The notes below the pieces were generated by a model that worked only from the letters and a program-made list of their open reading frames with translations, was not told the origin of the DNA and did not search any database. Shown one piece after another: positions 30,930 to 60,683 of a stretch of 64,000 nucleotides of DNA. Origin of the DNA: Novipirellula aureliae. GTDB taxonomy: Bacteria; Planctomycetota; Planctomycetia; Pirellulales; Pirellulaceae. Within the stretch, counting starts at the first letter, position 1, and every line of letters begins with the position of its first letter. The position numbers and the translations under genes are program-made. The stretch lies in assembly GCF_007860185.1 (NCBI RefSeq), contig NZ_SJPY01000002.1, forward strand, positions 252,374 through 316,373, in the 5' to 3' direction.

Positions 30930-30935
30930 GTTGGA

Positions 30936-33065: not shown

Positions 33066-33808
33066 GATGATTGCTCCGAAGGTTGAAGAGAGACTTTGTA
33101 GATGCGTTTCCGTTTGTCAAATCCGATGATCCAAACCTCGGTCCCCTTGGGGATCGTCGGACCATCAGTACGAATGTTTAAAAGTAGTGGTGCGGCCTCG
33201 GCGCGAAACTTCGCTTGGCCGAATTCAGGGGTTGCTTCCGTGGTCGTCACCTCACACGTGGCACCCATTAAATGGTTCTCGTCGTATGCTGGACCTTTGG
33301 CAAATGTTCCGACAAGCGGCCCGGTGGCTAATTTCGTTCCCGCAACCGCAATCACGACGTTGCGAATGGAAAGCAGGACACTGGCCCCTACCGCCGGCTC
33401 ATAGCGATTTGAATCGAAGCCATGCCACAACAGGAAAGACACCGACCAAAATATCGTTGCAAAGATGCCGCCCCAAACGATAACCGGAACGCGGCCAAAG
33501 TTGGTCCAGCGAGCTGAAACCGCTCCGATACCGTGCCAAAAATCCCATTCGACCACCGAATCAAGATCCAAACCAGGATCCAAACCAGGATCGAGATCGA
33601 CCTCGGGGACATCAAACCCGAAATCCAACAAACCTATCATCGCCAATGCGGTGTAGGCGATCAACAAGCACACCAAGATCGATGCGGGCCAAATCGGACC
33701 GACGAACATGTTGTTGACCGGATCGGTAATCGAATCCGCGAAGTTCATGGATGCATTGACAAATGAATGGAAAACGAGCCCCGCCACGCAGAGGGGTGTA
33801 CTCAGCAT
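33062..33808 (-). CDS. NfeD/YqiJ-like membrane protein (flotillin partner)
   Basis: 248 aa, 4-5 TM helices, then a soluble C-terminal ~80 aa (GATCEVTTTEATPEFGQAKFRAEAAPLLLNIRTDGPTIPKGTEVWIIG) resembling the NfeD OB-fold. Overlaps the flotillin start by 4 bp, as in yqiJ-yqiK / yuaF-floT pairs. Confidence 0.5.
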   Translation of the reverse strand: MLSTPLCVAGLVFHSFVNASMNFADSITDPVNNMFVGPIWPASILVCLLIAYTALAMIGLLDFGFDVPEVDLDPGLDPGLDLDSVVEWDFWHGIGAVSARWTNFGRVPVIVWGGIFATIFWSVSFLLWHGFDSNRYEPAVGASVLLSIRNVVIAVAGTKLATGPLVGTFAKGPAYDENHLMGATCEVTTTEATPEFGQAKFRAEAAPLLLNIRTDGPTIPKGTEVWIIGFDKRKRIYKVSLQPSEQSS

Positions 33809-34109: not shown

Positions 34110-34685
34110 TCACTTTAGCGGTTTCATGCCCTGATGATCGCGGAGGCGATTGAGCCATGCGAATGCGGCAGGGACCGAACGGACAAAGTTAACGAGTGAT
34201 GTCGTGCTCGTCCCCCACTCTTTTGCCACGAAACGGGTCTGTCCGCCCGCAGTATACAAGTCGTTTAACAACAATGCTAAAACCGCGGGTTTGTCCTCGT
34301 TGTTATCATTCATTCGTTTCAGAATTTGACGATACCGATCGCGGAGACTAGCCTCGATCGGATCAGTCGGCGTATCCAATTTTGGCTGACTGCGAATTTC
34401 GATTGCCAGTCGGAAACGAAGCCGCTTTAACGCGATGCGACGATTGTCCGCTTGACTACGTCGCTCGGTCGCCTCGCCAACGATTTGCGAGGGACGGTGT
34501 ATCAAAAACACGCCAGAGCTGGTTTTGTTTCGATGTTGCCCGCCTGGTCCGCTACGCCGCTGAGTTCTCAGTTCACACTGCTCAAGTAAATCCTTTGGCG
34601 ATTGTACCGCCGGATGCACGCCAGCTATCGTGAGAACGTCCATTGGCAACGTCTTCTTCGGTTCGCTCGATTCGCTATCCACCAC
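34110..34685 (-). CDS. arfB: ArfB-like peptidyl-tRNA hydrolase (class I release-factor GGQ domain protein)
   Basis: GGQ motif in RRSGPGGQHRNKTSSGVFLIHRP followed by a basic C-terminal tail (RRIALKRLRFRLAIE). 191 aa, longer than typical ArfB at the C-terminus. Confidence 0.6.
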   Translation of the reverse strand: MVDSESSEPKKTLPMDVLTIAGVHPAVQSPKDLLEQCELRTQRRSGPGGQHRNKTSSGVFLIHRPSQIVGEATERRSQADNRRIALKRLRFRLAIEIRSQPKLDTPTDPIEASLRDRYRQILKRMNDNNEDKPAVLALLLNDLYTAGGQTRFVAKEWGTSTTSLVNFVRSVPAAFAWLNRLRDHQGMKPLK

Positions 34686-36708
34686 TCACAAACTCGCTTA
34701 GCATATTCACGAAATCGGCTGCCAAACTGCGTGAAGGCAATTTCACCACTCCAACGCAAGAACGCCCGATCGAATCGAGCAATGGTTCATGCGGAAGAGT
34801 TGGCAGCGGACATATCACTCGATAGACGGCATCGCGAGTGACGCTCGTTCGATCCTCGCTCATTTGGGAAACCGATTCGATTTTCGTATCGACCCATTCA
34901 CGTTGACCGTAATCGATTCTCACTCGAATCGCGGTACCGCGCGTCACCCAGCGTTGGTCTTTGGCATCGAGCCAAAACATCGCTTGACGCTCTTCGTTCG
35001 TTGCGATTCGGCAAAACGGTTGGCGTGAATCATAGACCGTACCTGCGAAACTGGCCAACCATACGCTCTGATTCGGTTCGTCAACCGGTGTGGTTGCTTG
35101 AGGCGGTATGACGACTCCAGATACCGGCGAATGCACCTGAGTTTCTGCCAATCGTTTTTTCGCTTTGTCGAGTAACGCCCCGACGGACTCTTCGGCAGCT
35201 TGTAGTGTCTTCCACTGTTCGGCGACCTTGGGCCGATCGAGTGCATCGCGACGTGCCAGCTCGCCCCGCATATTCGCCAATCGCAATTCGCCCTCGAGTC
35301 GAGTAATCTCGATTCGCGACGTTTCATCGGTTAGTAGCGCCAATCGGTCTCCGGCGGCTACATGGTCACCGTATTCCGCTTTGATTTTTGAAATTTGGCT
35401 TGAGGGTGGTAAAAAGACGCTCGAGGAGTTTGCCGCATCAATGATTCCTGCTACTTCGCGATAACGCGGTAATGGTAGAAACAAAATCAACAATAGCAAA
35501 ACGGCGGGGGTCGATACGATCGCAAAACGGCGCCACTTCGATACACCCATCCAACTCCCCTTTCCTTGCAAGACACTAATAGAAGCCTTTGTTTTTGCCG
35601 CCATCAACCGTACCGCTACGATACAAACCAAGCCGATTCCTAATACGCTCAAATGAAGCAAATTGGCGACATGAACGATCAACGCGGCAATAGCGAATAG
35701 AACGGTCGTTCGATAGATCGTCGATGCGATGTGATAGCTCGACAACCCAATCGCTATTTTATCTGAGCGGCGGATTTTCTGGTACTGTTTTCCCGCAATC
35801 CTCGCAATGATCGTCGACTCGAACGCTTCACGCGCTTCGCGACGCAAATTCGTACTACCGACGGCATCCAACAACACATAGTAACCGTCATATCGCATGA
35901 GCGGATTGGCATTGAACAGCACGGTGCTGATGCCACAAACCAAGATTAGATTCATCGCATACATTCGTGCCGCCGGATCATCCGCTAATACCCAAACCCA
36001 GGTTGCGGAAGCCGCAATAATCAATTCGACATAGATGCCAGCCAACATGACTGCCGCACGCCGCACCGGGTTCGCAATTCGCCAAACATCGGTCACGTCG
36101 CAATAGGGGCATGGAACGCCGCAAAACAGATAGACACCTACCGATTTACTCTCCGCACCCATCCGTCGACACATGACCGCATGCGCCAATTCGTGGAGGA
36201 CTTTTGTGATCAAAAAAGTGATGCCGATCCCAAACGCATTTGCACTGCGAAGGTACACAGGCAACAAGCGAAGAGACGCGACCCACGCTTCCGATCGACT
36301 TACCAGTACCGCTATCGAAGCGACAATGATTGACATCCAAAATAGAATCGCGACCGGTGAGAAAAGGAATCCGCTAACCGGAGCGAGTCGTCTTGCGATG
36401 CCGTCAATACTGCCTAGCGGAATCTGAATCGCTAAAAAGTTAAACGGCTTGGATGGATTGGATGGAGACTCGAGTCGCTCGCAGGTCCAATCCGCCACTT
36501 TGGCTTGAGTCGACAAGGACGGGTCGACGCGGTCACCGTGAAGTTGTTGCCATGCGTGCTCGCTTATCCTGGAAAATTTCCCGCTAACGTCATCGATTAC
36601 CATTCGATAAGCTCGGGCGTAGCCTTGAACGGATACGCTACGCAGATCCCTTCGAATGAGAACGGAGGGAACGGAGCGAATCTCGTTTGGTAAAATCGAA
36701 TCGGCCAT
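34675..36708 (-). CDS. membrane-embedded M50-like zinc metalloprotease domain fused to a HlyD-type periplasmic adaptor domain
   Basis: HEXXH inside a TM segment (LITKVLHELAHAVMCRRMG), several further TM helices. C-terminal ~300 aa has coiled-coil plus beta-barrel-like HlyD features (AEYGDHVAAGDRLALL ... VHSPVSGVV). 677 aa. Confidence 0.55.
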   Translation of the reverse strand: MADSILPNEIRSVPSVLIRRDLRSVSVQGYARAYRMVIDDVSGKFSRISEHAWQQLHGDRVDPSLSTQAKVADWTCERLESPSNPSKPFNFLAIQIPLGSIDGIARRLAPVSGFLFSPVAILFWMSIIVASIAVLVSRSEAWVASLRLLPVYLRSANAFGIGITFLITKVLHELAHAVMCRRMGAESKSVGVYLFCGVPCPYCDVTDVWRIANPVRRAAVMLAGIYVELIIAASATWVWVLADDPAARMYAMNLILVCGISTVLFNANPLMRYDGYYVLLDAVGSTNLRREAREAFESTIIARIAGKQYQKIRRSDKIAIGLSSYHIASTIYRTTVLFAIAALIVHVANLLHLSVLGIGLVCIVAVRLMAAKTKASISVLQGKGSWMGVSKWRRFAIVSTPAVLLLLILFLPLPRYREVAGIIDAANSSSVFLPPSSQISKIKAEYGDHVAAGDRLALLTDETSRIEITRLEGELRLANMRGELARRDALDRPKVAEQWKTLQAAEESVGALLDKAKKRLAETQVHSPVSGVVIPPQATTPVDEPNQSVWLASFAGTVYDSRQPFCRIATNEERQAMFWLDAKDQRWVTRGTAIRVRIDYGQREWVDTKIESVSQMSEDRTSVTRDAVYRVICPLPTLPHEPLLDSIGRSCVGVVKLPSRSLAADFVNMLSEFVSGG

Positions 36709-36711
36709 CGT

Positions 36712-37689
36712 TTATCGCCAATCGGTCATTCGAATTTTCGCCGACTTGATCGCCGCATCACTGGCGTCAATCCTCATACGAACACTTGTTCCTGGCACCA
36801 ACATCCATTGTGTCATCGGCGAATCGGCGTTCCCATCGATTTGATTGATGACCTCCGCGTGTAATCGATACCGGCCACCCGGTAACCGCTGTGGATCGGA
36901 AGACAGAACGTTGCCCCGGAGCACTTTTTCGTTTCCATTGCTTGAATCGGTAAAGTGGACACTGACGGGCAATCCAGCACAATGTTTGGGCGACAATTGG
37001 TCTTCGCGAACGAGGGCATGAACATGCAATCGATCCATTTTGGCGACCGTCGCAATCGGCTGCCCCTTTTCGATCCATTCACCACTCGACCGAGCGATTT
37101 CGACGACGGTGCCCGCGAGGGGTGAGCTGATTCCAAGATTCTCGATTTGGTCGTCAAGCATGGCCAGATCCGCTTCGCGGAGTTGGACTTCGACAAACAA
37201 TTCACGTCGACGTTTTTCGGCTTGGGCAACCTCAAGTTCGCCACGTTCGACCGCCAATCGCAAACGGCGAAGGTGGCTCATAGGAACCGCACCATTCACA
37301 TCGTTATAAATCGAGCGGTTGGAGTCGAGCTCCGCCTTGGCTTCGGCGAGTGCCGTTTCGGCATACTTTTGTTCAACGTCGTCACCGGCAGCTTGGCGAG
37401 CATGCTCGAGACGCAATGACGAAGCACGGCGACGAATTTTAAGTGTTCGATCGTCAAGTCGTGCAAGTGTCTCATTTTCATTGACTCGCTGGTTAAGTTT
37501 CACTGCGATTTCGGCAATGCGACCCGACTCCAAACTCGGCACTTCAACCTCATCCGCAAAACGCACCACACAATCGGTTACTTCGACGATGCTGCTTTGG
37601 GCGCAGAGGATCGTTGGTGATGCGGCGAGCACGAGCGAAACGATCAAGCGAACTCGCAGAGCTTGTCTTGTTAGCAGCAGTCTGTTCAT
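36712..37689 (-). CDS. HlyD family secretion / efflux adaptor protein
   Basis: Signal-anchor N-terminus, biotinyl-lipoyl-like hairpin (RIAEIAVKLNQRVNENETLARLD ... SSPLAGTVVEI), central coiled coil. 325 aa. 3 bp from the downstream M50-HlyD gene. Confidence 0.55.
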   Translation of the reverse strand: MNRLLLTRQALRVRLIVSLVLAASPTILCAQSSIVEVTDCVVRFADEVEVPSLESGRIAEIAVKLNQRVNENETLARLDDRTLKIRRRASSLRLEHARQAAGDDVEQKYAETALAEAKAELDSNRSIYNDVNGAVPMSHLRRLRLAVERGELEVAQAEKRRRELFVEVQLREADLAMLDDQIENLGISSPLAGTVVEIARSSGEWIEKGQPIATVAKMDRLHVHALVREDQLSPKHCAGLPVSVHFTDSSNGNEKVLRGNVLSSDPQRLPGGRYRLHAEVINQIDGNADSPMTQWMLVPGTSVRMRIDASDAAIKSAKIRMTDWR

Positions 37690-37723
37690 ATTTGGATTTC
37701 TGGTTCAATTTGATCGTAGCTTA

Positions 37724-37900
37724 GGTTTCCAGCCTGGACTCCAATTTTTCCCAGGCTGGAAGCCTAGGCTACGTGAATCGGTTAATGCCTGAACGCCAAT
37801 TTCCCCCAGGCTGGAAGCCTAGGCTACGTGAATCGGTTAATGCCTGGACTCCAATTTTCCCAGGCTGGAAGCCTAGGCTACGTGAATCGGTTATTGCCTG
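37724..37900. repeat. ~54-bp tandem repeat x3 carrying the GCCTGGACTCCAATTTT and CCAGGCTGGAAGCCTAGG motifs
   Basis: ccagcctggactccaatttttcccaggctggaagcctaggctacgtgaatcggttaatgcc repeated three times with variants, in the 223-bp gap between two co-directional HlyD genes. The GCCTGGACTCCAA core recurs at 1594-1624 (reverse), 9043-9060 and 25668-25690. Confidence 0.85.
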
Positions 37901-37912
37901 GACTCTAACGGT

Positions 37913-40147
37913 CTAAAAATACATCTTCAAGTTTGCTCGAATCATTTCGATGGCATCGTAAAACACCACGTTAACCAGTGGCAGATCCTCACATTGGAAC
38001 ATGACCCGAATTGGAGTCCCGTTCACGGAACCACGGTTTTGAAGCGAGCGGCATAGCTCCATCGACTTCTCGGATGATTCGATTTGCAGCACGACTGCTT
38101 TTGCATCGGTTCCGTCCTTGGTGTTGCGGATCACCGGACCGATCGATTGCATCGTCAATGGCAACGGTTGGTCTTTTGCATCGTTCATCGTTGCGACTGC
38201 GGACAGGACGCCTTTTTGGTTTGCATGATGGACGGGATCGATTCGGGACAGTGGCACACGCGCGTCAACGAACCATCGAGTCTCATTGCCAATAACTTCC
38301 AATAAAGCATCTCCGCGATTGACGGGTCGACCTTGTAAACGCTGCTCGATTTGCCACGCATCCACGACACCATCGTTTGTCGCTCGTATGACCAGCGATT
38401 GTTTCACTTCTTCGAGATCGGCTAATTGTTGATCAATGGTTTGCAGCTCTTCCGCCAACAAACTTCGCTCACTTTGCAATTGTTCGCTACGGTCGGTTCG
38501 GTTGGAAGCCGTATCGACGAGAGCGGTCATGAAAGCTGATTGCTTCTGAATCAGAATCGATCGCCGGCCGATCAACGCGGTCATTTGTTGCTCAAGCGTA
38601 GGATCGCTCATCGACAACAGTTTCTGACCGCTTGTAACCGATTCCCCATTTGCGACATGGATCGATTCGATGACGGCCGACCTTGGCGCAAAAACTCGTT
38701 GCACGTCTGCTGGCCGAAGTACCGCCGGTGCAGTCACTCGCATCGGAACGGGGTAGAGTGCTGCAACCGCCACAAGAGCCATGAAGAGGATGCCAACGAC
38801 GGGGTTGAACCACTTCGCACGACGTCGCGAATGGATTTGGTTCGCCAATGCCCCGATCACGCGCCCCATGGGAATCGCTTCGAGCATTCGACGATGCCGA
38901 ATCGCTAACCCCGTGTGCAATGCGATGCGGCAGAGCGGTTCGCTTAGCAAATCGTCGAGCGGTTCCGAACCGCTGCGGACGAATCCTACCAAGCAAACGG
39001 CATCGCATTCTTCTGAACTGGCAACGAAACGAACTTCTAAATCGGAAGATCCTCCCTCTTGTTCGTCCGGAAGCATAATACACGAGGTTGCGGGACAATA
39101 GTACTCGTTGGCGACCGCTTCGATCTGTTTCGCTGCACTGCCGTTCCGGTCGATCGTACCAACATGACTCACCGCAACCAATTTGCAATCGTTTGCTTCG
39201 ACGTAGCACAATGCAACCCGGTCAAGGGGAAAAATCTTGGCGACCGAGTCGACCGCGAGCATTTCGATAGAACGGCTGTTGGTTTGGGCATGAAGCGAAG
39301 CAATGATCGCATCGACTTGGTCGTTTACACGTGCTTTGTGATCGAGACAGCGAAGTTGATCGTTGCGCAAAAACTCGCCAGCTAAATCTGCCATTTGAGC
39401 GACGAAACGCAGGTAGCCACGCTGGGTCGCGATCCCGCAATCGGGTTCAAGAAAGACTTCGAGGACATACGAAGGATGCGGCGAGATCGGATTGGACTCG
39501 ATCGGTACGACCGCCGCAGCCACATGGGTTGGATTGGCTGGAAGAGCGGAATCGGTAGCCCCGGGAGTTGCCGGAACAACGACCGGCTGTCCCGAGGCAA
39601 TCACTTCCGCAATCATTTGCAGGTGAGTGTTTGCCGATTCAGACGGAATCGTTTGGTCTGTCACCTTGCCAATCCGATGAGCAACCGAAAACGTCCATTC
39701 ATCAGTAGATCCGTCTCTCCGAGACGGACAGCCCGGCACCGTGGTTTCGTCTCTCCGAGACGGACAGCCCGGCACCGTAGGTTCGTCTCTCCGAGACGGA
39801 CAGCCCGGCACCGTAGGTTCGTCTCTCCGAGACGGACAGCCCGGCACCGTAGGAGCGTCTCTCCGAGACGGACACTCCCTCGTATCAACATTCCAAATCA
39901 CAACGCCTTCTGCTGCCATAGCCACCAGAATACGGTTGGCTAGCATTCCTAGAAATTGGTGACGCGAGGCATGACTGCGAGCCGCCAGTGCCACTTCGCG
40001 AACAATGTCGGCGATTTCACGCCGCGTTTCTTGGACGAGTGGGTTATTTTCGCCCGTCGACCGCTGCGGATGCGGCGCAGCGTTACCACCTGGAGCAGGT
40101 CCAGAAGGAGAAAAGACGAACGGTTGGTCGTGAACATCCGCTTGCAC
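37913..40147 (-). CDS. HlyD family adaptor protein with large N-terminal cytoplasmic GAF-like region and an in-frame 12-aa x5 repeat
   Basis: 744 aa. N-terminal ~450 aa is soluble with GAF-like blocks, then a TM helix (VVGILFMALVAVAALY), then a HlyD-like periplasmic domain (coiled coil LAEELQTIDQQLADLEEVK; beta-strands). Residues ~90-150 are CPSRRD(A/E)PTVPG x5, encoded by the palindromic 36-bp repeat. Confidence 0.5.
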   Translation of the reverse strand: MQADVHDQPFVFSPSGPAPGGNAAPHPQRSTGENNPLVQETRREIADIVREVALAARSHASRHQFLGMLANRILVAMAAEGVVIWNVDTRECPSRRDAPTVPGCPSRRDEPTVPGCPSRRDEPTVPGCPSRRDETTVPGCPSRRDGSTDEWTFSVAHRIGKVTDQTIPSESANTHLQMIAEVIASGQPVVVPATPGATDSALPANPTHVAAAVVPIESNPISPHPSYVLEVFLEPDCGIATQRGYLRFVAQMADLAGEFLRNDQLRCLDHKARVNDQVDAIIASLHAQTNSRSIEMLAVDSVAKIFPLDRVALCYVEANDCKLVAVSHVGTIDRNGSAAKQIEAVANEYYCPATSCIMLPDEQEGGSSDLEVRFVASSEECDAVCLVGFVRSGSEPLDDLLSEPLCRIALHTGLAIRHRRMLEAIPMGRVIGALANQIHSRRRAKWFNPVVGILFMALVAVAALYPVPMRVTAPAVLRPADVQRVFAPRSAVIESIHVANGESVTSGQKLLSMSDPTLEQQMTALIGRRSILIQKQSAFMTALVDTASNRTDRSEQLQSERSLLAEELQTIDQQLADLEEVKQSLVIRATNDGVVDAWQIEQRLQGRPVNRGDALLEVIGNETRWFVDARVPLSRIDPVHHANQKGVLSAVATMNDAKDQPLPLTMQSIGPVIRNTKDGTDAKAVVLQIESSEKSMELCRSLQNRGSVNGTPIRVMFQCEDLPLVNVVFYDAIEMIRANLKMYF
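39712..39885. repeat. 36-bp tandem repeat x5 (CGTCTCTCCGAGACGGACAGCCCGGCACCGTRGKTT) lying in-frame inside the GAF-HlyD CDS
   Basis: Copies start at 39712, 39748, 39784, 39820 and 39856 (last degenerate). The core CGTCTCTCCGAGACG is the same palindrome as in the intergenic arrays at 19237, 59143 and 61593. Confidence 0.9.
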
Positions 40148-40601: not shown

Positions 40602-41474
40602 GTGGCAAACGCTCGCGAACGACCGACGCTATTTCGCTGGTTCTTTTTGATCGGTCCAGCGCGGACGAGTGAGTTTTTGGGTGAGCAATTCCTAAGCCGA
40701 CTTGGCACGATCGTTTCGATCTTGGCAATGCTTTGGGCAACGGTTCGATTGGCGATTCGCCCCGCTTCCTGGACTCCCCCGATCCGCAGTATTTTTGCCC
40801 GTCAACTCTTGTTTAGCAGCGTTGACGGGGTCATCGTCGCGGTGCGGTTCGGAGCCGCGGTCGGTGTATTGATTATTGTCCAAGCTGCGCTTTGGGTCGA
40901 CGCGTTCGGCGTCACGACGGACGCGATTGCCCCGATTCTATGGCGTGCAATCGTTCGCGAATTGGCACCATTACTAGCGTGTCTGGTTGTGATCGGGCGC
41001 AGCGGGATCGCGATTTCGACCGAACTGGCCACGATGCTCGTCAACCACGAAGTCGACGTCCTCGACGCACAGGGGATCGATCCGATGACAGCGTTAGTGA
41101 TGCCGCGGATTCTCAGTATGGTGATCAGTGTCTTTTGTTTGGCAATCATCACTGCCACATCGATGATTGTGACGGGCTATGTGATTGGTTGGTCTGTGGG
41201 TGCGATCCATATCCCCTGGACCACCTTTCTCGATGGTATCTTTCGTGAATTCAATTCACTCGACTTGCTATTTTTCGTCTCCAAAACGATCATTGCTGGC
41301 GGCTTTGCTGGAGCCATTTGTTGCATCGATGGACTGAGTGTTGGCAGTAGTGTCACCGACGTTCCGCGGGTGTCGAGCCGGAGTGGAATCCGGGCGTTAA
41401 CGGCCGTCTTTGTTGTCTCTGCCGTGTTGTCCATATTGATTTATGGACGCATCCTCGTATTCAAAGTATTGTAA
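40602..41474 (+). CDS. mlaE: MlaE-family ABC transporter permease
   Basis: 290 aa, five TM helices, conserved MlaE/YrbE blocks (LFRWFFLIG ... VIGRSGIAISTELATM ... DAQGIDP). Confidence 0.8.
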   Translation: MANARERPTLFRWFFLIGPARTSEFLGEQFLSRLGTIVSILAMLWATVRLAIRPASWTPPIRSIFARQLLFSSVDGVIVAVRFGAAVGVLIIVQAALWVDAFGVTTDAIAPILWRAIVRELAPLLACLVVIGRSGIAISTELATMLVNHEVDVLDAQGIDPMTALVMPRILSMVISVFCLAIITATSMIVTGYVIGWSVGAIHIPWTTFLDGIFREFNSLDLLFFVSKTIIAGGFAGAICCIDGLSVGSSVTDVPRVSSRSGIRALTAVFVVSAVLSILIYGRILVFKVL

Positions 41475-41487
41475 CGAGCCGCACAGC

Positions 41488-42216
41488 ATGACAACCATCC
41501 AAACAACGATTCCAAACGAAAAGCCGATCGTACTGAGGTTATCGGATGTTTCTTTTCGTGCAAGTCGCGAAAGCGACATTCATTTCAATCGATTGACGAT
41601 GACGGTACGTCAAGGCGACTTGGCAATGATCCATCTTGACCGCTCCCAAAAGGTCCGCGAAACGGTTTCCGTTTTAGAGGGATTGATTCAGCCCCATGAA
41701 GGCACGGTGCTATTCGAGCAAAACGATTGGCTTGGTGACGATTACGACCGCCATTTTAGAATGAGAAGTCGGATTGGCCGCGTCTTTGAGAATAATGCAT
41801 GGATCCAAAATCTGAACATTGCCGAAAACGTCACACTGGCGCGGCGTCATCACCAAATGGAGCCGAAATCGATTGATACCGATCTGACCGTTTGGCGAAC
41901 ACGGTTCGACGTGGCAAACGTTCTGAATCAGCGTCCCGCCTTTGTTGAGCCATCGACACTACAAGTCTACCAGTGGATTCGTTCTCTGATATCAAAGCCT
42001 CGACTACTCTTGCTCGAACGCCCAATGCAATCGGTTTCACCATCCCGATTGACGGCACTTGTTAACGTATTGAATGAGGTTCGAATGGCGGGAACTGCCG
42101 TGGTCTGGTTCACGAGTAATCCGGAGGACGCAAGCGGCAAATTCGCTGATCCGCAGAGTCACTACACGCTAGCGGATGGAAAACTTGTGCAAACCGAAGG
42201 AGCATCGAGTCCATGA
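41488..42216 (+). CDS. ABC-ATPase-fold protein with degenerate catalytic motifs (MlaF-like pseudo-ATPase)
   Basis: Position, length and overall pattern match an MlaF-type nucleotide-binding subunit, but every catalytic motif is changed. Walker A is HLDRSQKV instead of GxSGxGKS/T. The Q-loop Gln is Glu (VFENNAW). The signature is PSTLQVYQ instead of LSGGQ. Walker B is LLLLERP instead of hhhhDEP. There is no H-loop His. ATG at 41488 chosen. Confidence 0.55.
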   Translation: MTTIQTTIPNEKPIVLRLSDVSFRASRESDIHFNRLTMTVRQGDLAMIHLDRSQKVRETVSVLEGLIQPHEGTVLFEQNDWLGDDYDRHFRMRSRIGRVFENNAWIQNLNIAENVTLARRHHQMEPKSIDTDLTVWRTRFDVANVLNQRPAFVEPSTLQVYQWIRSLISKPRLLLLERPMQSVSPSRLTALVNVLNEVRMAGTAVVWFTSNPEDASGKFADPQSHYTLADGKLVQTEGASSP

Positions 42217-43322
42217 ATGAACCTTTGCGTTTGCGATACACCAACCAAATCGTTGGCGTATTCTTGCTGATCTTGCTGCTATTCGTGATCGGTCTGTCCG
42301 TGCTACTGTTGCAGGCGACCGACTATTTCGTAGAGCAGGATTTGTACTGGATTGAAATCGCGCAAGAGGACGTCGACGATCTCTATAAGGGAGCGGATGT
42401 GATGATTCTCGGCGAACGAGCTGGTGCGGTCGACAGTATTCGCTACATCGACGGCAGCGACCGAATTCGGGTAAACCTAAGAATCGATCCGACGAAAAGC
42501 GCTGATATCTTTACCGATTCGGTCGTCTTGCTACAGCGGAGGTTTGGACTGGGAAACCCGATACTTGTCATCCGCCGCGCTCATCGCGATGGGGCTAGCG
42601 AAGCACAATCGCTACCTGCGGGAAGCCGACTAGAAAACTTTCATGGTGAGGACGACCGAATCGACCAAATGGCTCGCGAGGTCGCGACGGTCAGCGATTC
42701 GGTTAGAAAAATCCAACAAAAACTCGACCCCACATTGACAGGGATTGAACAGTCAGCGAAGCGTTTCACAAGCTCGCTTGACGATTCCGTGGATCCCGCT
42801 CTAGCCAGTACTCGTCGTGCATCCGATTCCGTTCGAGTAACGAGCGAAGCGGTTCGCCCAGAGGTGGTCGACACGATGCAAACGGTCCGCACGGCCACCG
42901 AAAATCTAGAATCACGCATCGAAACTCTAACGGGAAAAATTGAACAACTGGTCGAAAAGGATGTACGCCGAACGCTCGCCGATGTTCGTGAATCAACCGA
43001 CGACATTAGCGAGGCCGCTAAAGGTGTCAACCAGAGCACTGAAACCGTTAGCGAAGATATCGCCGAGACGCTCGCCGCACTGCGAGTTGCCGCCGAACAG
43101 GTGCAACAGCTTGCTACCGAGACACGCGAAGTGGTACGAATGGTTCGAAAGGAAGCGAACGATCTACCGGGTACAACACAGCGAGTTAACGATACCGTCA
43201 GCGACACACAAGAATTGGTCGGCGAAGTTCGTAGCCACTGGCTGCTACGTCGATACCGAGATCAATCGACTGCGTCAGAGCAATTGTCACCATCGAGTGT
43301 GCGCGGAGGTTCCGCCAGATGA
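42213..43322 (+). CDS. MCE/MlaD-family periplasmic substrate-binding protein with long helical C-terminal extension
   Basis: N-terminal TM anchor (IVGVFLLILLLFVIGLSVLLL), MCE beta-barrel region (GADVMILGERAGAVDSIRYIDGSDRIRVNLRID), then ~200 aa of helical heptad-like sequence. Overlaps the upstream gene by 4 bp. Confidence 0.7.
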   Translation: MNEPLRLRYTNQIVGVFLLILLLFVIGLSVLLLQATDYFVEQDLYWIEIAQEDVDDLYKGADVMILGERAGAVDSIRYIDGSDRIRVNLRIDPTKSADIFTDSVVLLQRRFGLGNPILVIRRAHRDGASEAQSLPAGSRLENFHGEDDRIDQMAREVATVSDSVRKIQQKLDPTLTGIEQSAKRFTSSLDDSVDPALASTRRASDSVRVTSEAVRPEVVDTMQTVRTATENLESRIETLTGKIEQLVEKDVRRTLADVRESTDDISEAAKGVNQSTETVSEDIAETLAALRVAAEQVQQLATETREVVRMVRKEANDLPGTTQRVNDTVSDTQELVGEVRSHWLLRRYRDQSTASEQLSPSSVRGGSAR

Positions 43323-44395
43323 ATGCAGCTACAAGGGTCCATGCCGTTGCCGTCTCGGTTGTATTGGCCATCTTGCTTGTGCAGTCGGGATGCCGCACCC
43401 CCTCGCTCTCACCGATCAAGGAGGTTGACAGCACACTCGTGCGACATTCAAAGTCAGCCAAGGAAGCCTATGCGGAAGGCGATATCGACGCTGCAATTCG
43501 CGAATACCGAAAAGCAATCCGGCGAGCCTGGGCGATCGACAATCCCTATGAATCGGGCACCGCTGCATACAATTTGGCCGCTTGCATGACCAGCCTCGAC
43601 AAGAATGCAGAAGCAAAGGACTGGTTGGTCGATGCCAGGATTGAGTTGTGTCGTGCAGGAAGTTCGACAGGCAACACGTGGCTGCTCGAAGCTAAAATCG
43701 CCTTGCAAGAATGCCGCTTTGATGAGGCTCAGCAAATGCTGGATCGCGCTGCGTGTTGCACCCCGCCCTGTAGCCAAAATGGACACGATTCCTGTTGCCG
43801 TCCACACGATCCTTGTCAAGGATCTTGCGTGACACAAATTCCTTGCGTGGGGAAAAAGCTCAAACAAAAGAAACAAACCGAACAGTGTGAGGATGATTAC
43901 CAGGCTCAAATCCATTTGGCACGCGCACGATTGGCTGCCGAGAAGTACGACATTCTCTGCGCCGAACAATCGTTCGAAAGTGCTTGCAAATTGGCGGCCG
44001 ACGTTTGTAGTGAAGAACTACAAGCCGAACTGCAAAACGTCGCGGCGATGATCCATTTAGCGAAAGGCGAATATTTCCAAGCCGCATGCCATTTCGACAA
44101 AGAAGCCGAACATCTACGTTTGGCAGGCAATTTCCGAGAAGTACCGATCGCACTTGAATTTGCATCGGCGGCCTACGAACAGTCGGGGCGAATGGATTTG
44201 GCCACCACTCGGATGTGCCGGGTTGCCAGAATCTGGTTCGGTCGCGGAGAGACGAAGAAGTCATGGGACTACGTCCAAACCGCTTCCGAGTTGGCCGAGT
44301 TCTGCGAGTCGCAAACCGCCCGCATCCGACTGGCACTTTTAGTCAACGAAATTGAACGAGCACTCGCTGATGGAGAGGTGGTGGCTACTCGCTAA
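43319..44395 (+). CDS. lipoprotein with TPR-like helical repeats (Mla-operon accessory protein)
   Basis: Lipobox LLVQSGC after the signal peptide. Alanine-rich helical repeat pairs (AYAEGDIDAAIREYRKAIRRA, FEAQQMLDRAA ...). 4-bp overlap with the MCE gene. Confidence 0.5.
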   Translation: MNAATRVHAVAVSVVLAILLVQSGCRTPSLSPIKEVDSTLVRHSKSAKEAYAEGDIDAAIREYRKAIRRAWAIDNPYESGTAAYNLAACMTSLDKNAEAKDWLVDARIELCRAGSSTGNTWLLEAKIALQECRFDEAQQMLDRAACCTPPCSQNGHDSCCRPHDPCQGSCVTQIPCVGKKLKQKKQTEQCEDDYQAQIHLARARLAAEKYDILCAEQSFESACKLAADVCSEELQAELQNVAAMIHLAKGEYFQAACHFDKEAEHLRLAGNFREVPIALEFASAAYEQSGRMDLATTRMCRVARIWFGRGETKKSWDYVQTASELAEFCESQTARIRLALLVNEIERALADGEVVATR

Positions 44396-44726: not shown

Positions 44727-45950
44727 ATGAACTTTCCTCTACTATCCGTCTTTGCGGTTGTGACGGTAGTGTGCCTGTTCGGTTTCCCGAAAGCAGGTGT
44801 GTATTTGGGTGACATCCCGATCACGTTCGGCTACCTTCTGCTCGGCGTGACGGGTGGAATCCAACTGATTCGTTTGGCGGCGAACTCAAAGCGGCGAATA
44901 CGCCCCGAGTACGCTGCGTTGGGTCTGCTATTTTTCCTGCTCTCTACCGTCGAGTTGGCTGGTTTTTCCCAGTACGGCTACGCATCCAAAGGCGCATTGA
45001 TTTCGATCGTTGTCAGTACCATTATCGTGCCGGTTTTGTCATTGCTAAGCATCCACTACTTCATCGACATTCTCGGCACACCACGATTCTTGAAGCTGCT
45101 ACGAATTTCATTGCTGATCGTCTTCGGCTTTGGGGTACTGTCATTCGTTGTTTACAATACAACTCACATCGTCATCGGCATACCGTTTCTAACGACGACG
45201 GGCGCAGACATCCATTTGGTAGCCGAGCGTCACAATCTTCGCGGCAGCATGATTAAGATGTTTTCCACGTACAACAATGGAAACATTCTAGGAGTCAACT
45301 TACTGATTTGGGGGCCGATCGCAGCGATTGGCGCAGCGGGAGCCCGATTTCAGTTTCGTTCCATTTGCATACTCACTCTTTCGAGAAGCGTTTGGATAGG
45401 CTTTGCCGCCTATGAATTTGTTAACGCGGTCGTCCAGAGAAAGATTGCCAGGATTTTCTACGCGGGCGCCTTTGTCCTTGTACTGTTCGCCATTTTTGTC
45501 GGGGCTTCTTACGTAATGGGCCGCGAGCCGTTCGCATTTCTCCTCGACTCAAACCTCGGAGGCCGCGTCTCGAACTTTCGAGATGAGCTGCATGGAATGG
45601 GCACGCAAAAGCTGGCCTGGACAAGTGAAAGTCTATACCTAGCCGCCTACTTAACATTCGGCTGGATGGGCGTCGCGCTCATCACCCTGATCTGGCTGCT
45701 CCCAATCGTCTTTGGCGGTCGCAGCCCGATCGAAATCCAAAGTCGGATCGTTCTGGCAATCTATTTGTTTATTGCCAGTTCTGAAGCTGCTTTTAACCTG
45801 ATTCCCACGCAGGCGGTTTATTGGATGGTTGCTGGATTGGCGCTTGGTGCGGCTGGGACAAAGCCGGATGAAATTGACGACGAATGGACTAATCTGCCAA
45901 ACATTCCGCATAGAGACCCAAGTGCTGATCGACCACACGTTTTCGAGTAA
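44727..45950 (+). CDS. polytopic membrane protein, O-antigen ligase / Wzy-like polymerase candidate
   Basis: 407 aa, ~10-11 TM helices, one larger loop. Sits within a cluster of GT4 transferases, a flippase and methyltransferases. No strong motif, so the call is by topology and context. Confidence 0.4.
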   Translation: MNFPLLSVFAVVTVVCLFGFPKAGVYLGDIPITFGYLLLGVTGGIQLIRLAANSKRRIRPEYAALGLLFFLLSTVELAGFSQYGYASKGALISIVVSTIIVPVLSLLSIHYFIDILGTPRFLKLLRISLLIVFGFGVLSFVVYNTTHIVIGIPFLTTTGADIHLVAERHNLRGSMIKMFSTYNNGNILGVNLLIWGPIAAIGAAGARFQFRSICILTLSRSVWIGFAAYEFVNAVVQRKIARIFYAGAFVLVLFAIFVGASYVMGREPFAFLLDSNLGGRVSNFRDELHGMGTQKLAWTSESLYLAAYLTFGWMGVALITLIWLLPIVFGGRSPIEIQSRIVLAIYLFIASSEAAFNLIPTQAVYWMVAGLALGAAGTKPDEIDDEWTNLPNIPHRDPSADRPHVFE

Positions 45951-46995
45951 ACTCGGACGCAACTCGCTCTTTGCCGCTTTCGATCATTTGCTGAGTCTTA
46001 CTTGGCTCCGCAACAACCGCCCTTAGTGCCGCTACAAAAGCAGCTCGATTCTCGCTTGGTGCAACACGCCCATCCACTTGATCACGGACCACTTCGGTGC
46101 ATCCGTTCACGTCACTGATGACAACGGCCAATCCCATCGCCATCGCTTCGACCGGTGCGATCGGTAGCCCTTCCCACAAGCTCGCCATCAAAAAGGTGCC
46201 ACACTCAGACATTCGAAAAAGTCCATCGCGACGTGATTGGTCACCATGAAAGATCACGTTGTGAATCTGCTGCGTTTGCGCTCTTGATCGAATTTCGGCC
46301 TCCATGTCGCCACCGCCTATGAAGTGAAACACAAAACCTTCGTTGGCCAAATCGGCGGCGATATCGAGAACGAGATGCGGGTTTTTCTGAATGGTCAGTC
46401 GCCCGAGAACAGCAACATTTAACCGGCGAGCTTCGTCATCGGCGCTTGATCGATTTGGAGATGGGATGTCCGCCAAACGAATGCCGTTGCGAATAACGAC
46501 GCTGTCGTGATTGTCGACAACAAAGCGGCGGTCAATTGCAACCTGTTGATCACTTTGGCTGACATGAACCGTTCGGAAAATGGATTGGCTAATTTTCCGT
46601 TCGACTCGTTCAGCCAAAAAACGCATCAAAAACGTCTTTCGCCAAAAATGGTAACCCCGTACGGTATAAAGCATCTTTTGCAACTGTGGTGGCGTAGCCC
46701 CGCGAACCATCGCAAACGCAGCCCGCCCGCCATGCGCATGCACGATGTCTGCAGATGCCTCTTTAACGGCTGCACGTAGCTCATTTACGATCCGCGTATC
46801 AATTCGACTGCGGAAAAAGTGAAGTCCATCATATACTTCGGCACCAAGTTTCCGAGCTTCCTCGGTCGCATACGAATGCCCTTCACTGCAAAAGACAACC
46901 TCGACACCTTGATCGATTAAGTCTTCCGTCAAAGCCAATACATTGGTGGTTCCGCCGCCTGGGCTTCCGTCGGCAACAATTTGCATTACTCTCAT
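45889..46995 (-). CDS. glycosyltransferase family 4
   Basis: MRVMQIVADGSPGGGTTNV N-terminal GT-B domain and C-terminal EGLPIAPVEAMAMGLAVVISDVNG motif. ATG at 46993-46995 chosen, because the longer track ORF would overlap the upstream GT gene by 140 bp. Confidence 0.7.
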   Translation of the reverse strand: MRVMQIVADGSPGGGTTNVLALTEDLIDQGVEVVFCSEGHSYATEEARKLGAEVYDGLHFFRSRIDTRIVNELRAAVKEASADIVHAHGGRAAFAMVRGATPPQLQKMLYTVRGYHFWRKTFLMRFLAERVERKISQSIFRTVHVSQSDQQVAIDRRFVVDNHDSVVIRNGIRLADIPSPNRSSADDEARRLNVAVLGRLTIQKNPHLVLDIAADLANEGFVFHFIGGGDMEAEIRSRAQTQQIHNVIFHGDQSRRDGLFRMSECGTFLMASLWEGLPIAPVEAMAMGLAVVISDVNGCTEVVRDQVDGRVAPSENRAAFVAALRAVVAEPSKTQQMIESGKERVASEFTRKRVVDQHLGLYAECLAD

Positions 46996-47005
46996 GATCG
47001 TGGCT

Positions 47006-48166
47006 TCACACCTCTCTCGATGCAATCGATTGATCTTGGCAAGGCTCAACCATCCGATCAATGAATCGTTGCCATGTGAATTGCCTTCCATGTTGGCGAA
47101 TACGATCGCTATCAAAGATCCGTCGATGGTTGAGAATTTCTTCAATGGTATTGGTCAATGGACCGATATCCGCATTATTTAGTAAAACACCAGAAACACC
47201 GTCTGCGATCGCCTCCCCGACGCCGCCATTGTCAACACCGATGCTGGCAACACCTCTCGTCGCGGCTTCGGCAAATGAAATACCAAATCCTTCGACGGTA
47301 TTGTTTTTTAATAGCCGATTGGGCATCACATATAGATTCAACAGGTCGTAGTGACAGACATGTTCACTCTCCGAAACACGACCAGCGAATACAACGTGAT
47401 CGGAGACACCGAGTTCCTTGACTCTATTTTCCAAGAAAGCACGTTGCGGTCCCGTGCCACCGATCAAGTACTTAAGATTCGGATACTTGGTTGCTAGTGC
47501 TGCAACCGCGTCGATGACGAGATCGTTTCCTTTACGCTCATCAAGTCGGCTGATCGTTCCAATAACAAAATCATTGGCATCAAAACCGTAGCGACTTCGG
47601 AGCTCGCGTTGTTTTTCAGGATCTGCGTGATTTTGAATGAAGTTGTCGCCAACACCGCAGGAGGTTCGAATACTATCGTGACCGTACTTTGACTTTAGTT
47701 GAGATTCAACAAAACGCGTCGTACTAAAAATACGTTTGGCGTTTCCGAGCGCCAAACGCATGAGACGGTCCGTCGTTGCGTTGCGTGAATAGCGAATCAA
47801 TTCCGAGCCATGAAGCAAAACCTCGTACTCGATCGCTCCCATCTTTGTCATGATTGGAAATGGAAGGGCATTCGATGCATCGATGACAAGTATTCGGTCA
47901 AATCGCTGTCGACGAATCCAGCGCCCGTTCACCATTGGCCAGAGAGAGCATAGATATACTTTTCCTAATGCCGCATTCCGAGGCCGATGATAGTATTCCA
48001 TTTTGGCTTTTTCATCGCCAAAATCGTTGATCGCTTTTCGTGATCCGTTGGTCAAAACCGTCACATCGTGGTTGCGTTCGACTAAGCCATCGGCCAATGC
48101 GCAGGCAACACGGGCGATTCCGCCGATCGTGGGTCGATATTCGTCGCTAATCAGCAAATATTTCAT
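47006..48166 (-). CDS. glycosyltransferase family 4
   Basis: MKYLLISDEYRPTIGGIARVACALADGLVERNHDVTVLT, C-terminal EGFGISFAEAATRGVASIG E-x7-E-type motif. Confidence 0.75.
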   Translation of the reverse strand: MKYLLISDEYRPTIGGIARVACALADGLVERNHDVTVLTNGSRKAINDFGDEKAKMEYYHRPRNAALGKVYLCSLWPMVNGRWIRRQRFDRILVIDASNALPFPIMTKMGAIEYEVLLHGSELIRYSRNATTDRLMRLALGNAKRIFSTTRFVESQLKSKYGHDSIRTSCGVGDNFIQNHADPEKQRELRSRYGFDANDFVIGTISRLDERKGNDLVIDAVAALATKYPNLKYLIGGTGPQRAFLENRVKELGVSDHVVFAGRVSESEHVCHYDLLNLYVMPNRLLKNNTVEGFGISFAEAATRGVASIGVDNGGVGEAIADGVSGVLLNNADIGPLTNTIEEILNHRRIFDSDRIRQHGRQFTWQRFIDRMVEPCQDQSIASREV

Positions 48167-49533
48167 GGGCTGAACGTTTCGGGTTCCGGATTCACTTTCG
48201 TTGCTTCCTTGCGGATCAAGAAGTCAGGAGAGAACGAAAGGTAAACGCAAACAATTGCAAACAGTATGGCTAGCAACGCTTCGCACGCTAAACTCGTCCA
48301 GATCGCTCCATACCATGAATAGAGTGGAATAAACACAATCCCTGCGATAACATAGGTTACAAGGACAACAATTTGAAGAAAAGTGCGGATCCATTGATAG
48401 CCAGTAGCCGTTAAAAAATTACCACATGTGTAGTGGATCGCTTGGATAACCGGTAACAGAAATCCAATGCGAAGGATTGCGATGGAGCCTTCGAACTCGG
48501 CTCCGAACAAGTAGATTGCATACGGAGCGAGGACATAGAGCGTCAAGGCTATCAGACCGCCTAACACGACATTCACTAACAACACGGCACCCGAAAACCG
48601 AACGCAGGCAGATCGATCTTTATCAGCCAATTCGACCGTGCGTGGAAAGGTCGCTTCTAAAATGGCCCGCATCGGCATGAACGACAAGGCTAGAATTTTG
48701 TAGCCTGCCGAATAGGTTCCGACAATCGCAGCGTTGGACCATCGTGTCAAGAACAGCTTGTCAAGATCGGTGTACACCACCTTGCACATGACGCTCAAAC
48801 CAAATGAAATTGACAGCCGAAAATTCTCCCTTAGTTCAAACCATGATACTCGGGAGATTCGAACGAGACGAGCAAACGAGGAAAGAAAGAGGAACAGCGT
48901 AATCGACAGACCGAGATTCAAGAACAAGACCAGAAGCAGAATCGAGCGATAACCGGCCATGAACAAGATAAACGCAACCAATGCCTTTGTCGCAGCGACA
49001 AGCGTATTGATGGCCGCCGTTCGCGTGATGTCACGTCGAGCTTGATGAATGCGTCCAATCGCCAAACAGCATCGCACCAGAACCAACTCACTGATCGCCA
49101 AGCCAAATATCAAATGCCAAGGCAGCCAGCGGTCCGTACCGATGGCTGCAGAAGCGAGCGCTAAGAGAACCGCGAAAACACCCCCCATGGCGAATGTTGT
49201 CGCCATCGTGTTGGCGACCCAAATCCCCGTTGTTTTTCGATCGCTGCTGACTCGCAATAAGGCGACTTCGGCGTAGCCAATTCCGGATAACGGTGCAAGC
49301 ATTGCAATGGCAGCCAAGGCAGCAGCGAATTGACCAAACCGTTCAACGCCCAACATCCGTGTCAACAGAACAAAGTAGCCCATTTGAAAAGCGAGTTGAG
49401 CGACATATCCGATCCCCAACGTGGCAGATGCCGTCAGATGGGTCCGTGCATGACGAACCTTTTCAACCGAAAAAGCCACGCTACGAATAAGCAACGATGC
49501 TAGACTAGGAGCTGTTCCTCGATGCTTGCTCAC
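48163..49533 (-). CDS. polysaccharide biosynthesis protein / Wzx-like oligosaccharide flippase (MOP superfamily)
   Basis: 456 aa, ~12-14 TM helices with the internal duplication typical of MOP flippases. 4-bp overlap with the downstream GT gene. Confidence 0.6.
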   Translation of the reverse strand: MSKHRGTAPSLASLLIRSVAFSVEKVRHARTHLTASATLGIGYVAQLAFQMGYFVLLTRMLGVERFGQFAAALAAIAMLAPLSGIGYAEVALLRVSSDRKTTGIWVANTMATTFAMGGVFAVLLALASAAIGTDRWLPWHLIFGLAISELVLVRCCLAIGRIHQARRDITRTAAINTLVAATKALVAFILFMAGYRSILLLVLFLNLGLSITLFLFLSSFARLVRISRVSWFELRENFRLSISFGLSVMCKVVYTDLDKLFLTRWSNAAIVGTYSAGYKILALSFMPMRAILEATFPRTVELADKDRSACVRFSGAVLLVNVVLGGLIALTLYVLAPYAIYLFGAEFEGSIAILRIGFLLPVIQAIHYTCGNFLTATGYQWIRTFLQIVVLVTYVIAGIVFIPLYSWYGAIWTSLACEALLAILFAIVCVYLSFSPDFLIRKEATKVNPEPETFSP

Positions 49534-60163: not shown

Positions 60164-60165
60164 CG

Positions 60166-60672
60166 TTATTGCTCCTTGACTGCCACGTAGGTGGATTCAA
60201 TATCTTCAAAGGAATCGCCGATTATTTTCTGCACTCGTGTTACCTGGCCAACTTTCACATCTTTGTCTCCCATAATCATCACATGGTTTTTATTACGTCC
60301 TTGAGACTTCTCGAGTTCACTGGTGACGTATTCGACGATCTCGGACGCTTGCGTTGCTTCGTCGCGACTGAATTCGGTCCCATCGAGCCGTTCGACAATC
60401 GCGTCCTCACCCGCCCCTGGCTTGATGAAGATTACGGCCGAGTCTTTTGCTGAAATGGCCAATGCGTTATCCGCTTCAGGAATCGAGCCAATTTGTGTGG
60501 GGTCCATTTTCGAGGCGACGACAAAGAAGATGAGCAGCAAGAATGTGATGTCGATCATCGGCGTGATGTCCATTTCCTCGTCATCACGCTTCTTGCGAGG
60601 CAGCATCACCTCCTCTTCTTCTTCTACGTCCACATCGACTGCGTCATTGTTGGTCGGATTTGCGGTACTCAT
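60166..60672 (-). CDS. exbD: ExbD/TolR-family biopolymer transport protein
   Basis: MDITPMIDITFLLLIFFVVASK signature. 168 aa. 2-bp gap to the downstream exbD. Confidence 0.8.
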   Translation of the reverse strand: MSTANPTNNDAVDVDVEEEEEVMLPRKKRDDEEMDITPMIDITFLLLIFFVVASKMDPTQIGSIPEADNALAISAKDSAVIFIKPGAGEDAIVERLDGTEFSRDEATQASEIVEYVTSELEKSQGRNKNHVMIMGDKDVKVGQVTRVQKIIGDSFEDIESTYVAVKEQ

Positions 60673-60683
60673 GTCAGGCTCCC

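Follow-up and report, generated by a model that had tools for sequence, protein, structure and literature searches.

Can an Mla-type transporter work without an ATPase of its own? This question is raised by a stretch of 64 kb from the planctomycete Novipirellula aureliae (Planctomycetota, Pirellulaceae; hereafter, the window), in which positions 40602-44395 carry four intact open reading frames (ORFs) on the plus strand. They encode an MlaE-family permease, a protein with the fold of an ATP-binding cassette (ABC) nucleotide-binding domain (NBD) that has none of the catalytic motifs (hereafter, pseudo-NBD), an MCE protein and a TPR lipoprotein. The four genes together are called the cassette. 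The interpretation we favour, with about even confidence, is an MlaE-MCE conduit that operates without ATP and is clamped structurally by the pseudo-NBD; a helical extension of ~200 aa would be part of the conduit, and the TPR lipoprotein would be its partner.

An MlaF homologue without catalytic motifs

The pseudo-NBD (41488-42216, plus strand, 242 aa) was compared by BLASTP with E. coli MlaF, the sequence of which was verified to be identical to PDB 6xbd_I. The Walker A motif of MlaF, GPSGIGKT, corresponds to LDRSQKVR, and the position of the catalytic Lys is occupied by Val56; the degenerate loop HLDRSQKVRE (residues 49-58, 41632-41661) aligns with MGPSGIGKTT. The Gln of the Q-loop is replaced by Glu101. 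The signature LSGGM is replaced by VEPST (residues 153-157), in a region (VEPSTLQV, residues 153-160, 41944-41967) that aligns with LSGGMARR. In Walker B, LIMFDEP has become LLLLERP, i.e., the Asp is replaced by Glu177 and the catalytic Glu by Arg178 (LLLLERPM, residues 173-180, 42004-42027, aligned with LIMFDEPF). The His of the H-loop is replaced by Thr209, in the stretch VVWFTSN (residues 205-211, 42100-42120). The alignment stops near MlaF residue 231. An earlier sequence-only reading of the window had named HLDRSQKV, LLLLERP, a Glu in place of the Q-loop Gln and the absence of the H-loop His, and the alignment to MlaF, which it had suggested as a check, confirmed these losses residue by residue. 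It was also right that LSGGQ is lost, but the replacement it had given, PSTLQVYQ, was off by two residues. As all five motifs are replaced, the pseudo-NBD cannot be a conventional ATPase, in agreement with the earlier expectation that ATP is not hydrolysed. In E. coli MlaF, the exchange K47R alone abolishes ATPase activity and complementation (PMC5016091). Judged from its sequence, canonical binding of ATP by the pseudo-NBD is as improbable as its hydrolysis.

The protein is 100% identical to an N. aureliae protein at NCBI that is named "putative phospholipid import ATP-binding protein MlaF". Its score with ABC_tran (PF00005) is 22.8 bits, which is under the Pfam gathering cut-off of 25, and each of its matches to an ATPase family of NCBIfam is far under the respective cut-off. 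A phmmer search of all PDB sequences gave MlaF as the top match (E 5.6e-9). An AlphaFold2 model built on 68 homologues had a mean predicted local distance difference test (pLDDT) value of 92.8, and the model together with its Foldseek matches revealed an NBD fold with RecA-like and helical subdomains. The top Foldseek match was again MlaF (6xgz_A, E 2e-18, TM 0.77); in total 1214 PDB matches were obtained at E<=0.001, and the 50 listed were all ABC NBDs. E. coli MlaF is thus the nearest solved relative by sequence as well as by predicted fold. No better-fitting non-ABC family was obtained with Pfam, NCBIfam or Foldseek, so the view that the protein is a degenerate MlaF and not a non-ABC protein was upheld.

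The losses are shared by the homologues. A word-indexed search yielded 76 of them, and GK[ST], SGG, the D-E pair of Walker B and the H-loop His are missing in all 76. A profile search covering 1.8 billion cluster representatives (50% clusters) yielded 465 proteins at E<=1e-30, and the 143 new representatives in the top 150 were examined. One had a GK[ST], which is a chance match, none had SGG at the aligned signature position, and two had the D-E pair. The majority (91 of the 143) carry E-[R/S/Q/H]-P at Walker B, i.e., Arg, Gln, His or Ser stands in place of the catalytic Glu, and the residue at the Q-loop position differs among family members (E, D, A, S, G). In the region of the H-loop the alignment of the 143 representatives was unreliable, and the loss of the His rests on the 76 homologues. 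With these few exceptions, the conservation of the degenerate motifs in orthologues, which had been proposed as a further check, was verified. In public records, family members are called MlaF, FtsE, NikE, "ABC transporter ATP-binding protein", "P-loop NTPase" or "hypothetical".

Selection on the four genes was quantified by comparison with a close metagenomic relative (dS ~0.6). The ratio of nonsynonymous to synonymous substitution rates (dN/dS) was lowest for MlaE (0.064) and highest for the pseudo-NBD (0.176), with values of 0.095 for the MCE protein and 0.110 for the lipoprotein. The mean identities to the window within the Pirellulaceae were 70% (MlaE), 45% (pseudo-NBD), 55% (MCE protein) and 53% (lipoprotein). 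The pseudo-NBD is under purifying selection, yet it is the fastest-evolving of the four. In ordinary ABC transporters the NBD is the best-conserved part, and the cassette shows the reverse. The low ABC_tran score, taken alone, speaks for an artefact or a decaying pseudogene. However, the reading frame is uninterrupted, hundreds of independent sequences show the same losses, the dN/dS is 0.18 at a dS of ~0.6, the structural model is confident and the synteny is conserved, and this explanation, which is already refuted, retains next to no probability. In particular, a sequencing error in the gene is ruled out because the losses are family-wide and dN/dS is 0.18.

Conserved positions of the pseudo-NBD and the coupling helix of MlaE

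The conservation of the pseudo-NBD was mapped over 209 family members. The most conserved block comprises residues 93-122 (41764-41853, plus strand), which run from the strand preceding the Q-loop, through Glu101 at the Q-loop position, into the beginning of the helical subdomain. Within it, R93, I96, G97, R98, V99, F100, W105, N108, L109, E113, N114, L117, H121 and H122 are each conserved to at least 83%. The other positions with at least 80% are R149-P150, the residues W163, R165 and A166, the stretch P171 to P179, and W207; Glu177 reaches 92%, Pro179 98% and Trp207 95%. Several of the conserved positions belong to the general NBD scaffold. The former Walker A loop has no consensus residue of at least 50%, and the positions of the signature, the D-loop and the H-loop are poorly conserved. 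The lack of conservation in the region of the nucleotide site speaks against the idea that this site has acquired a new ligand. By analogy with other NBDs, residues 93-122 would form the groove, or docking face, for the coupling helix of the transmembrane domain.

These data also bear on the possibility that nucleotide is bound or hydrolysed in a non-canonical way, by residues that have been relocated in the fold. As a general point, some pseudoenzymes stay active by way of relocated residues (PMC10211241), and the pseudo-NBD retains an aromatic residue in its DVSF stretch that could act as the A-loop aromatic. However, all five motifs were lost together, and the former P-loop contains no glycine and no conserved Lys, Ser or Thr, in addition to the absence of a consensus in the 209 members. 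We regard non-canonical nucleotide use as very improbable.

The presumed counterpart of the docking face is found in MlaE (40602-41474, plus strand, 290 aa, GTG start; PF02405, E 3e-42), which is the most conserved member of the cassette by identity as well as by dN/dS. Its best PDB matches are YrbE1A (top) and MlaE. The coupling-helix motif NHEVDVLDAQGIDPMTALVMPRIL (NHEVDVLDAQGIDP..PR; residues 148-171, 41043-41114) aligns with EIDALEVLGIDP..PR of YrbE1A and is kept wherever mlaE is present at a locus (41 of 41). In E. coli, the coupling helix docks MlaF on MlaE (PMC7790496). A search for homologues of the cassette MlaE listed cassette-type orthologues throughout the top 120, a result that says nothing on paralogues.

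Cassette architecture and the periplasmic subunits

The assignment of the four genes to an MlaE permease, an ABC-fold protein, an MCE protein and a lipoprotein of Mla/MCE type had been made from the sequence alone and agrees with the Pfam results and the gene coordinates. The order had been likened to mlaFEDC, which was not correct; it is E-F-D, followed by the gene for the TPR lipoprotein. The 4-bp overlaps described earlier are present as ATGA at two of the three junctions, pseudo-NBD/MCE (42213) and MCE/lipoprotein (43319). At the first junction there is a gap of 13 nt between the stop of mlaE (41474) and the ATG of the pseudo-NBD gene (41488). A further possible ATG of the latter lies upstream at 41443; the NCBI protein begins at 41488. 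The 454-nt intergenic region upstream of the cassette had no Rfam match, and the scans for promoters and terminators gave scores no better than shuffled sequence.

The MCE protein (42213-43322, plus strand, 369 aa) begins with a cytoplasmic motif, M-x-x-P-[YF]-[RK]-[LF]-R-[YF]-x-N-[QE]-I-x-G (42213-42260), which is present at all loci, just before the transmembrane helix (42249-42311). It is common across phyla, with R8 and G15 invariant, and might contact MlaE or the pseudo-NBD. The N-terminal membrane anchor is followed by a single MCE domain (about 42330-42602; PF02470, 30.4 bits versus a cut-off of 25.1) and by an extension of ~200 polar, helix-prone residues (about 42615-43235). A hydrophobic FGLG stretch (RRFGLGNPILVI) is visible in the cassette sequence. 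The best NCBIfam match of the protein is TIGR00996 (E 9e-15). As a single sequence it had no match in the PDB, and matches were found with the family profile alone, namely to Mce1B, Mce1C, Mce1F and MlaD, the strongest being to LetB, with a score summed over repeated MCE domains. The alignment of the profile covers the MCE and helical domains of Mce1B, Mce1C and Mce1F from M. smegmatis, and the MCE domain of MlaD. The ~200-aa helical extension that had been noted before is supported by these matches to the helical domains of Mce1 proteins, and the sequence makes a long helical MCE needle plausible. The PDB entry 13hr_I, a "Mce/MlaD domain-containing protein" of 312 aa, also aligns with the profile (positions 32-289, E 3e-13).

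The length of the MCE protein varies from about 250 to 370 aa across lineages. Near its end it carries the motif DLPG..TQ.L..E.R.HWLLRRY (residues 317-348, 43161-43256; DLPG..TQ.T.RE..L..G.R.HWLLR+Y as the form across phyla), followed by a tail of about 20 aa (21 aa in the window). This motif was seen from the Pirellulaceae to Verrucomicrobiota, Kiritimatiellia and Lentisphaerota, and W343 is invariant (alignment A3).

The fourth protein (43319-44395, plus strand, 358 aa) has weak matches to TPR families. It starts with a signal peptide that ends in a Gly24-Cys25 lipobox (43319-43393), the Gly-Cys of which is nearly invariant, and continues with tandem helix-turn-helix repeats, as is characteristic of a TPR lipoprotein. 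In the model (pLDDT 91.6) two TPR lobes (43430-43753 and 43847-44368) are separated by a Cys-rich loop (43754-43846) with 9 Cys in 31 residues. The loop is of low model confidence; C151 within it and C190 just past it are invariant, and it may form periplasmic disulfides or bind metal. The fold matches were to generic TPR proteins only, and the candidate assignment of the protein as an analogue of MlaA, MlaC or PqiC by fold was rejected. TPR domains often bind short peptide tails, and it is therefore proposed that the lipoprotein receives the C-terminal tail of the MCE protein.

A proposed passive conduit and its alternatives

In the proposed mechanism, the four genes would encode one envelope machine. 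MlaE would form a dimer in the inner membrane, and on the cytoplasmic side a pseudo-NBD would sit on each coupling helix; this subunit retains the fold and the putative docking face of an ABC protein and would lack canonical ATP binding and hydrolysis. On the periplasmic side, the single-domain MCE protein, presumably a hexamer, would provide a hydrophobic pore that extends into the ~200-aa helical extension towards the outer membrane and ends in the HWLLRRY motif and the tail, for which the TPR lipoprotein would be the likely receptor or anchor. As the NBDs could not cycle, the MlaE dimer would be held in its resting, outward-open state and would act as a passive conduit. Nucleotide-free MlaFEDB of E. 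coli is outward-open, and a hydrophobic path leads without interruption from the pocket of MlaE into and through the pore of MlaD (PMC7790496); in a comparable state of the cassette proteins, lipids would thus move by spontaneous partitioning down their chemical gradient. Net flow would probably be from the inner membrane, where lipids are synthesized, to the outer membrane. In vitro, MlaFEDB transfers lipids spontaneously both ways, with ATP hydrolysis promoting retrograde and blocking anterograde transfer (10.1101/2021.05.25.445566), and ATP-independent export to MlaC was reported (10.1101/388546). For the cassette, the data demonstrate the gene content and order, the loss of all motifs, the fold, the conservation throughout the family, purifying selection and the places of the conserved positions. 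We infer the stoichiometry and the docking, the conformation in which MlaE would be fixed, which lipid is carried and in which direction, and the contact between the lipoprotein and the MCE tail. The sequence-only reading had offered three options for the complex. The structural or passive one is best supported, as conservation lies on the surface that faces the transmembrane domain by homology, the borrowing of an ATPase is disfavoured, and a regulatory role is a further candidate.

The cassette was surveyed in one genome per GTDB species and by contig look-ups. A single peptide pattern was used, and the distribution is therefore a lower bound. The four genes were found in identical order at at least 43 loci. 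The hosts are mostly Pirellulaceae, Verrucomicrobiota, Kiritimatiellia and Lentisphaerota/Victivallales, but also include Mucisphaera, and a few loci stem from Acidobacteriota, Syntrophobacteraceae and Acetobacteraceae. At the 43 loci, an MlaF-like ORF with a Walker A motif was not present within about 6 kb of any cassette. Also in the 64-kb window no canonical ABC ATPase was found; phmmer with MlaF and a Walker A regular expression, applied to six-frame ORFs of at least 80 aa, retrieved only the pseudo-NBD. The window thus holds a motif-less MlaF homologue in the operon and no other candidate for an ATP-hydrolysing MlaF/MceG subunit. MlaB (STAS), MlaC (PF05494) and MlaA (PF04333) were found neither among the four cassette proteins nor among the window ORFs scanned (roughly the first 21 kb were unscanned).

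In a published survey, MlaA, MlaC and also MlaB were not found in the sampled Planctomycetia (Grasekamp et al. 2023, PMC10665443). It lists one MlaD, one MlaE and one adjacent "MlaF" each for Pirellula staleyi and Planctopirus limnophila; MlaF was assigned by profile match and synteny, and the catalytic motifs were unchecked (PMC10665443). A metagenome-assembled genome (MAG) of Pirellula sp. carries the degenerate cassette. By way of this MAG, a putative link to P. staleyi and P. limnophila can be drawn, and the cassette may be the only MlaE/MCE system in some Planctomycetia. A wider proposal can be put forward tentatively, namely that throughout the Planctomycetes-Verrucomicrobia-Chlamydiae (PVC) superphylum an ABC transporter became a lipid bridge across the envelope, passive or gated, in which the pseudo-NBD locks the MlaE-MCE path open, and that in some species it is the sole MlaE/MCE system; we hold this to be possible rather than probable.

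Several points weigh against the clamp and passive conduit. The docking of the pseudo-NBD on MlaE, the hexameric MCE needle and the binding of the tail by the TPR lipoprotein are themselves deduced. In addition, a canonical ABC ATPase encoded elsewhere could replace the pseudo-NBD on some MlaE dimers or could form a heterodimer with it. There is a precedent for sharing, as mycobacterial mce operons without an ATPase gene share MceG/Mkl, and the ATPase search covered the 64-kb window of N. aureliae, so that a paralogue elsewhere in the genome is possible. An argument against such a borrowed ATPase is that the cassette has an NBD-fold protein of its own, and the strong conservation of the putative MlaE-facing block and of the coupling helix argues that the docking site is probably occupied. 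A single mlaE gene implies a symmetric dimer, on which a defined pair of unlike NBDs would have no basis. Such a heterodimer would, moreover, still lack both composite sites, as the pseudo-NBD contributes neither Walker A nor signature. The absence of a canonical ATPase within about 6 kb at 43 loci and the single, adjacent set of genes in P. staleyi and P. limnophila, together with the degenerate cassette in Pirellula sp., point in the same direction. A borrowed ATPase is improbable.

The last group of opposing points concerns regulation. W81, R98, W105, H121, H122, R149, W163 and W207 are nearly invariant, specific for the family and not present in canonical MlaF, and they could mark a gained function beyond clamping. 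Such a function could be that of a switch, i.e., the pseudo-NBD would be a sensor or adaptor that binds a cytoplasmic protein or a small molecule on a new surface and gates the MlaE-MCE path. The dN/dS of 0.18 indicates that the protein is more than a spacer, and the conserved cytoplasmic N-terminus of the MCE protein would also be compatible with a switch. A hint of regulation comes from the most divergent subclade, outside PVC, in which a gene with cyclase homology lies directly upstream of the cassette (L004, 4916-7219; L005; L042, 2452-5076; L043, 2-1309). At L004 it is a dCache-GAF-class III cyclase gene, the end of which overlaps the start of mlaE. At the Pirellula sp. locus (L044, 4606-6419) a convergent Response_reg-GGDEF/Guanylate_cyc gene lies just downstream of the cassette. 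The sensor-cyclase gene of the divergent subclade may thus link signalling to the system. However, no partner gene is conserved beside the cassette within the Pirellulaceae, as the window, L001 and L002 have different neighbours. The former nucleotide pocket shows no conservation, and the family-specific residues could merely stabilise a fold that is now without nucleotide. A regulatory switch is unlikely, but deserves more weight than the borrowed ATPase.

Among known systems, the cassette resembles E. coli MlaFEDB in the permease, which has the same coupling-helix motif, in the pseudo-NBD, the best sequence and fold match of which is MlaF, and in an MCE protein with an N-terminal transmembrane helix and one MCE domain. 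In contrast to the pseudo-NBD without any catalytic motif, MlaF is an active and required ATPase (K47R is null). Furthermore, the cassette lacks MlaC and MlaA, its MCE protein is twice as long and the TPR lipoprotein is an extra subunit. The long-MlaD MlaEFD system of Veillonella parvula shares the order E-F-D, the absence of MlaA, MlaB and MlaC, and a long helical MlaD that was proposed to span the envelope (PMC10665443). Its mlaE and mlaF closely resemble those of Proteobacteria according to that study, and its MlaD ends in a beta-barrel that is stated to be absent from PVC sequences (PMC10665443); both features differ from the cassette, as does the lack of a TPR lipoprotein. Mycobacterial Mce1/Mce4 systems (YrbEAB, MceA-F, MceG) are similar in that YrbE1A is the top PDB match of the cassette MlaE, that the MCE profile aligns with Mce1B, Mce1C and Mce1F through the helical domains and TIGR00996 is the top NCBIfam match, and that a long helical needle, which is predicted for the cassette, is combined with accessory proteins. 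They have six Mce and two YrbE proteins and an active MceG encoded elsewhere, whereas the cassette has one MCE protein, one permease and a dead NBD within the operon.

The PqiABC and LetAB systems of E. coli also form MCE tunnels, and they function without any ABC ATPase. PqiB carries a helical needle at its C-terminus and has PqiC as a lipoprotein partner, much as predicted for the cassette MCE protein. In contrast to the cassette, PqiA and LetA are unrelated to MlaE, an NBD-fold subunit is missing, several MCE domains are present per protein, and PqiC is not a TPR protein. The last comparison is with ABC transporters that have one degenerate site, i.e., TM287/288, TAP and CFTR, in which an NBD has likewise lost catalytic residues but kept its fold and its contact with the transmembrane domain (PMC7756269). 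They retain one competent site, and ATP still binds to the degenerate one (PMC7756269), whereas in a homodimer of the pseudo-NBD both composite sites would be without Walker A, signature, Walker B and H-loop. In the open-access and bioRxiv literature searched, neither a degenerate MlaF nor the cassette was found to be described. MCE systems without an ATPase and ABC transporters with one degenerate site were already known; a conserved NBD partner of MlaE without any motif is new with respect to that literature and represents a rare case of a fully degenerate NBD that is retained as a partner of the transmembrane domain.

The direction of phospholipid movement by Mla/MCE systems and the role of ATP have been debated for years. 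A widespread, motif-less family under purifying selection that retains MlaE, the MCE tunnel and the NBD scaffold is a natural ATPase-null Mla, and it makes testable whether the MlaE-MCE conduit alone supplies lipids or equilibrates them between the membranes. If the proposed mechanism is true, the cassette shows what the MlaE-MCE machine does without energy input. It is also a candidate route of lipid supply to the outer membrane in planctomycetes and their relatives. As public records label pseudo-NBDs as active ATPases, inactive members may have been included wherever "ABC transporters" and "Mla systems" were counted in these phyla.

The neighbours of the cassette differ between genera, and those in the window are shared only with the closest relative (L046). 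The variable flanks indicate that the cassette is autonomous. The upstream HlyD and M50 genes and the downstream glycosyltransferase and flippase genes were considered as parts of the system and were rejected, as they are shared with that relative only. Upstream, on the minus strand and divergent from the cassette, three consecutive HlyD-type genes are located at 34675-40147; they are absent beside the cassette in other genera. The last of them (34675-36708) is a fusion of Peptidase_M50 and HlyD_3. The ORF 37913-40147 (minus strand) encodes a HlyD-like protein of 744 aa and contains a 36-nt tandem repeat with 4.7 copies and 94% identity (39705-39874), which encodes PSRRDEPTVPGC about five times. 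Downstream (44727-49533), an ORF for a polytopic membrane protein of 407 aa without a Pfam match is followed by two GT4 glycosyltransferase genes and a Polysacc_synt flippase gene on the opposite strand, and similar neighbours are present in L046.

Farther away in the window, the region 25692-33808 (minus strand) encodes a protein of 1745 aa with DUF3686, DUF7902 and an AAA domain, flanked by two ORFs without Pfam matches (30936-33065 and 33062-33808) that overlap each other by 4 bp. Last, an ExbB(MotA/TolQ)-ExbD-ExbD cluster (59387-61415, minus strand) adjoins the gene for a PQQ/beta-propeller protein of 1131 aa (55716-59111).

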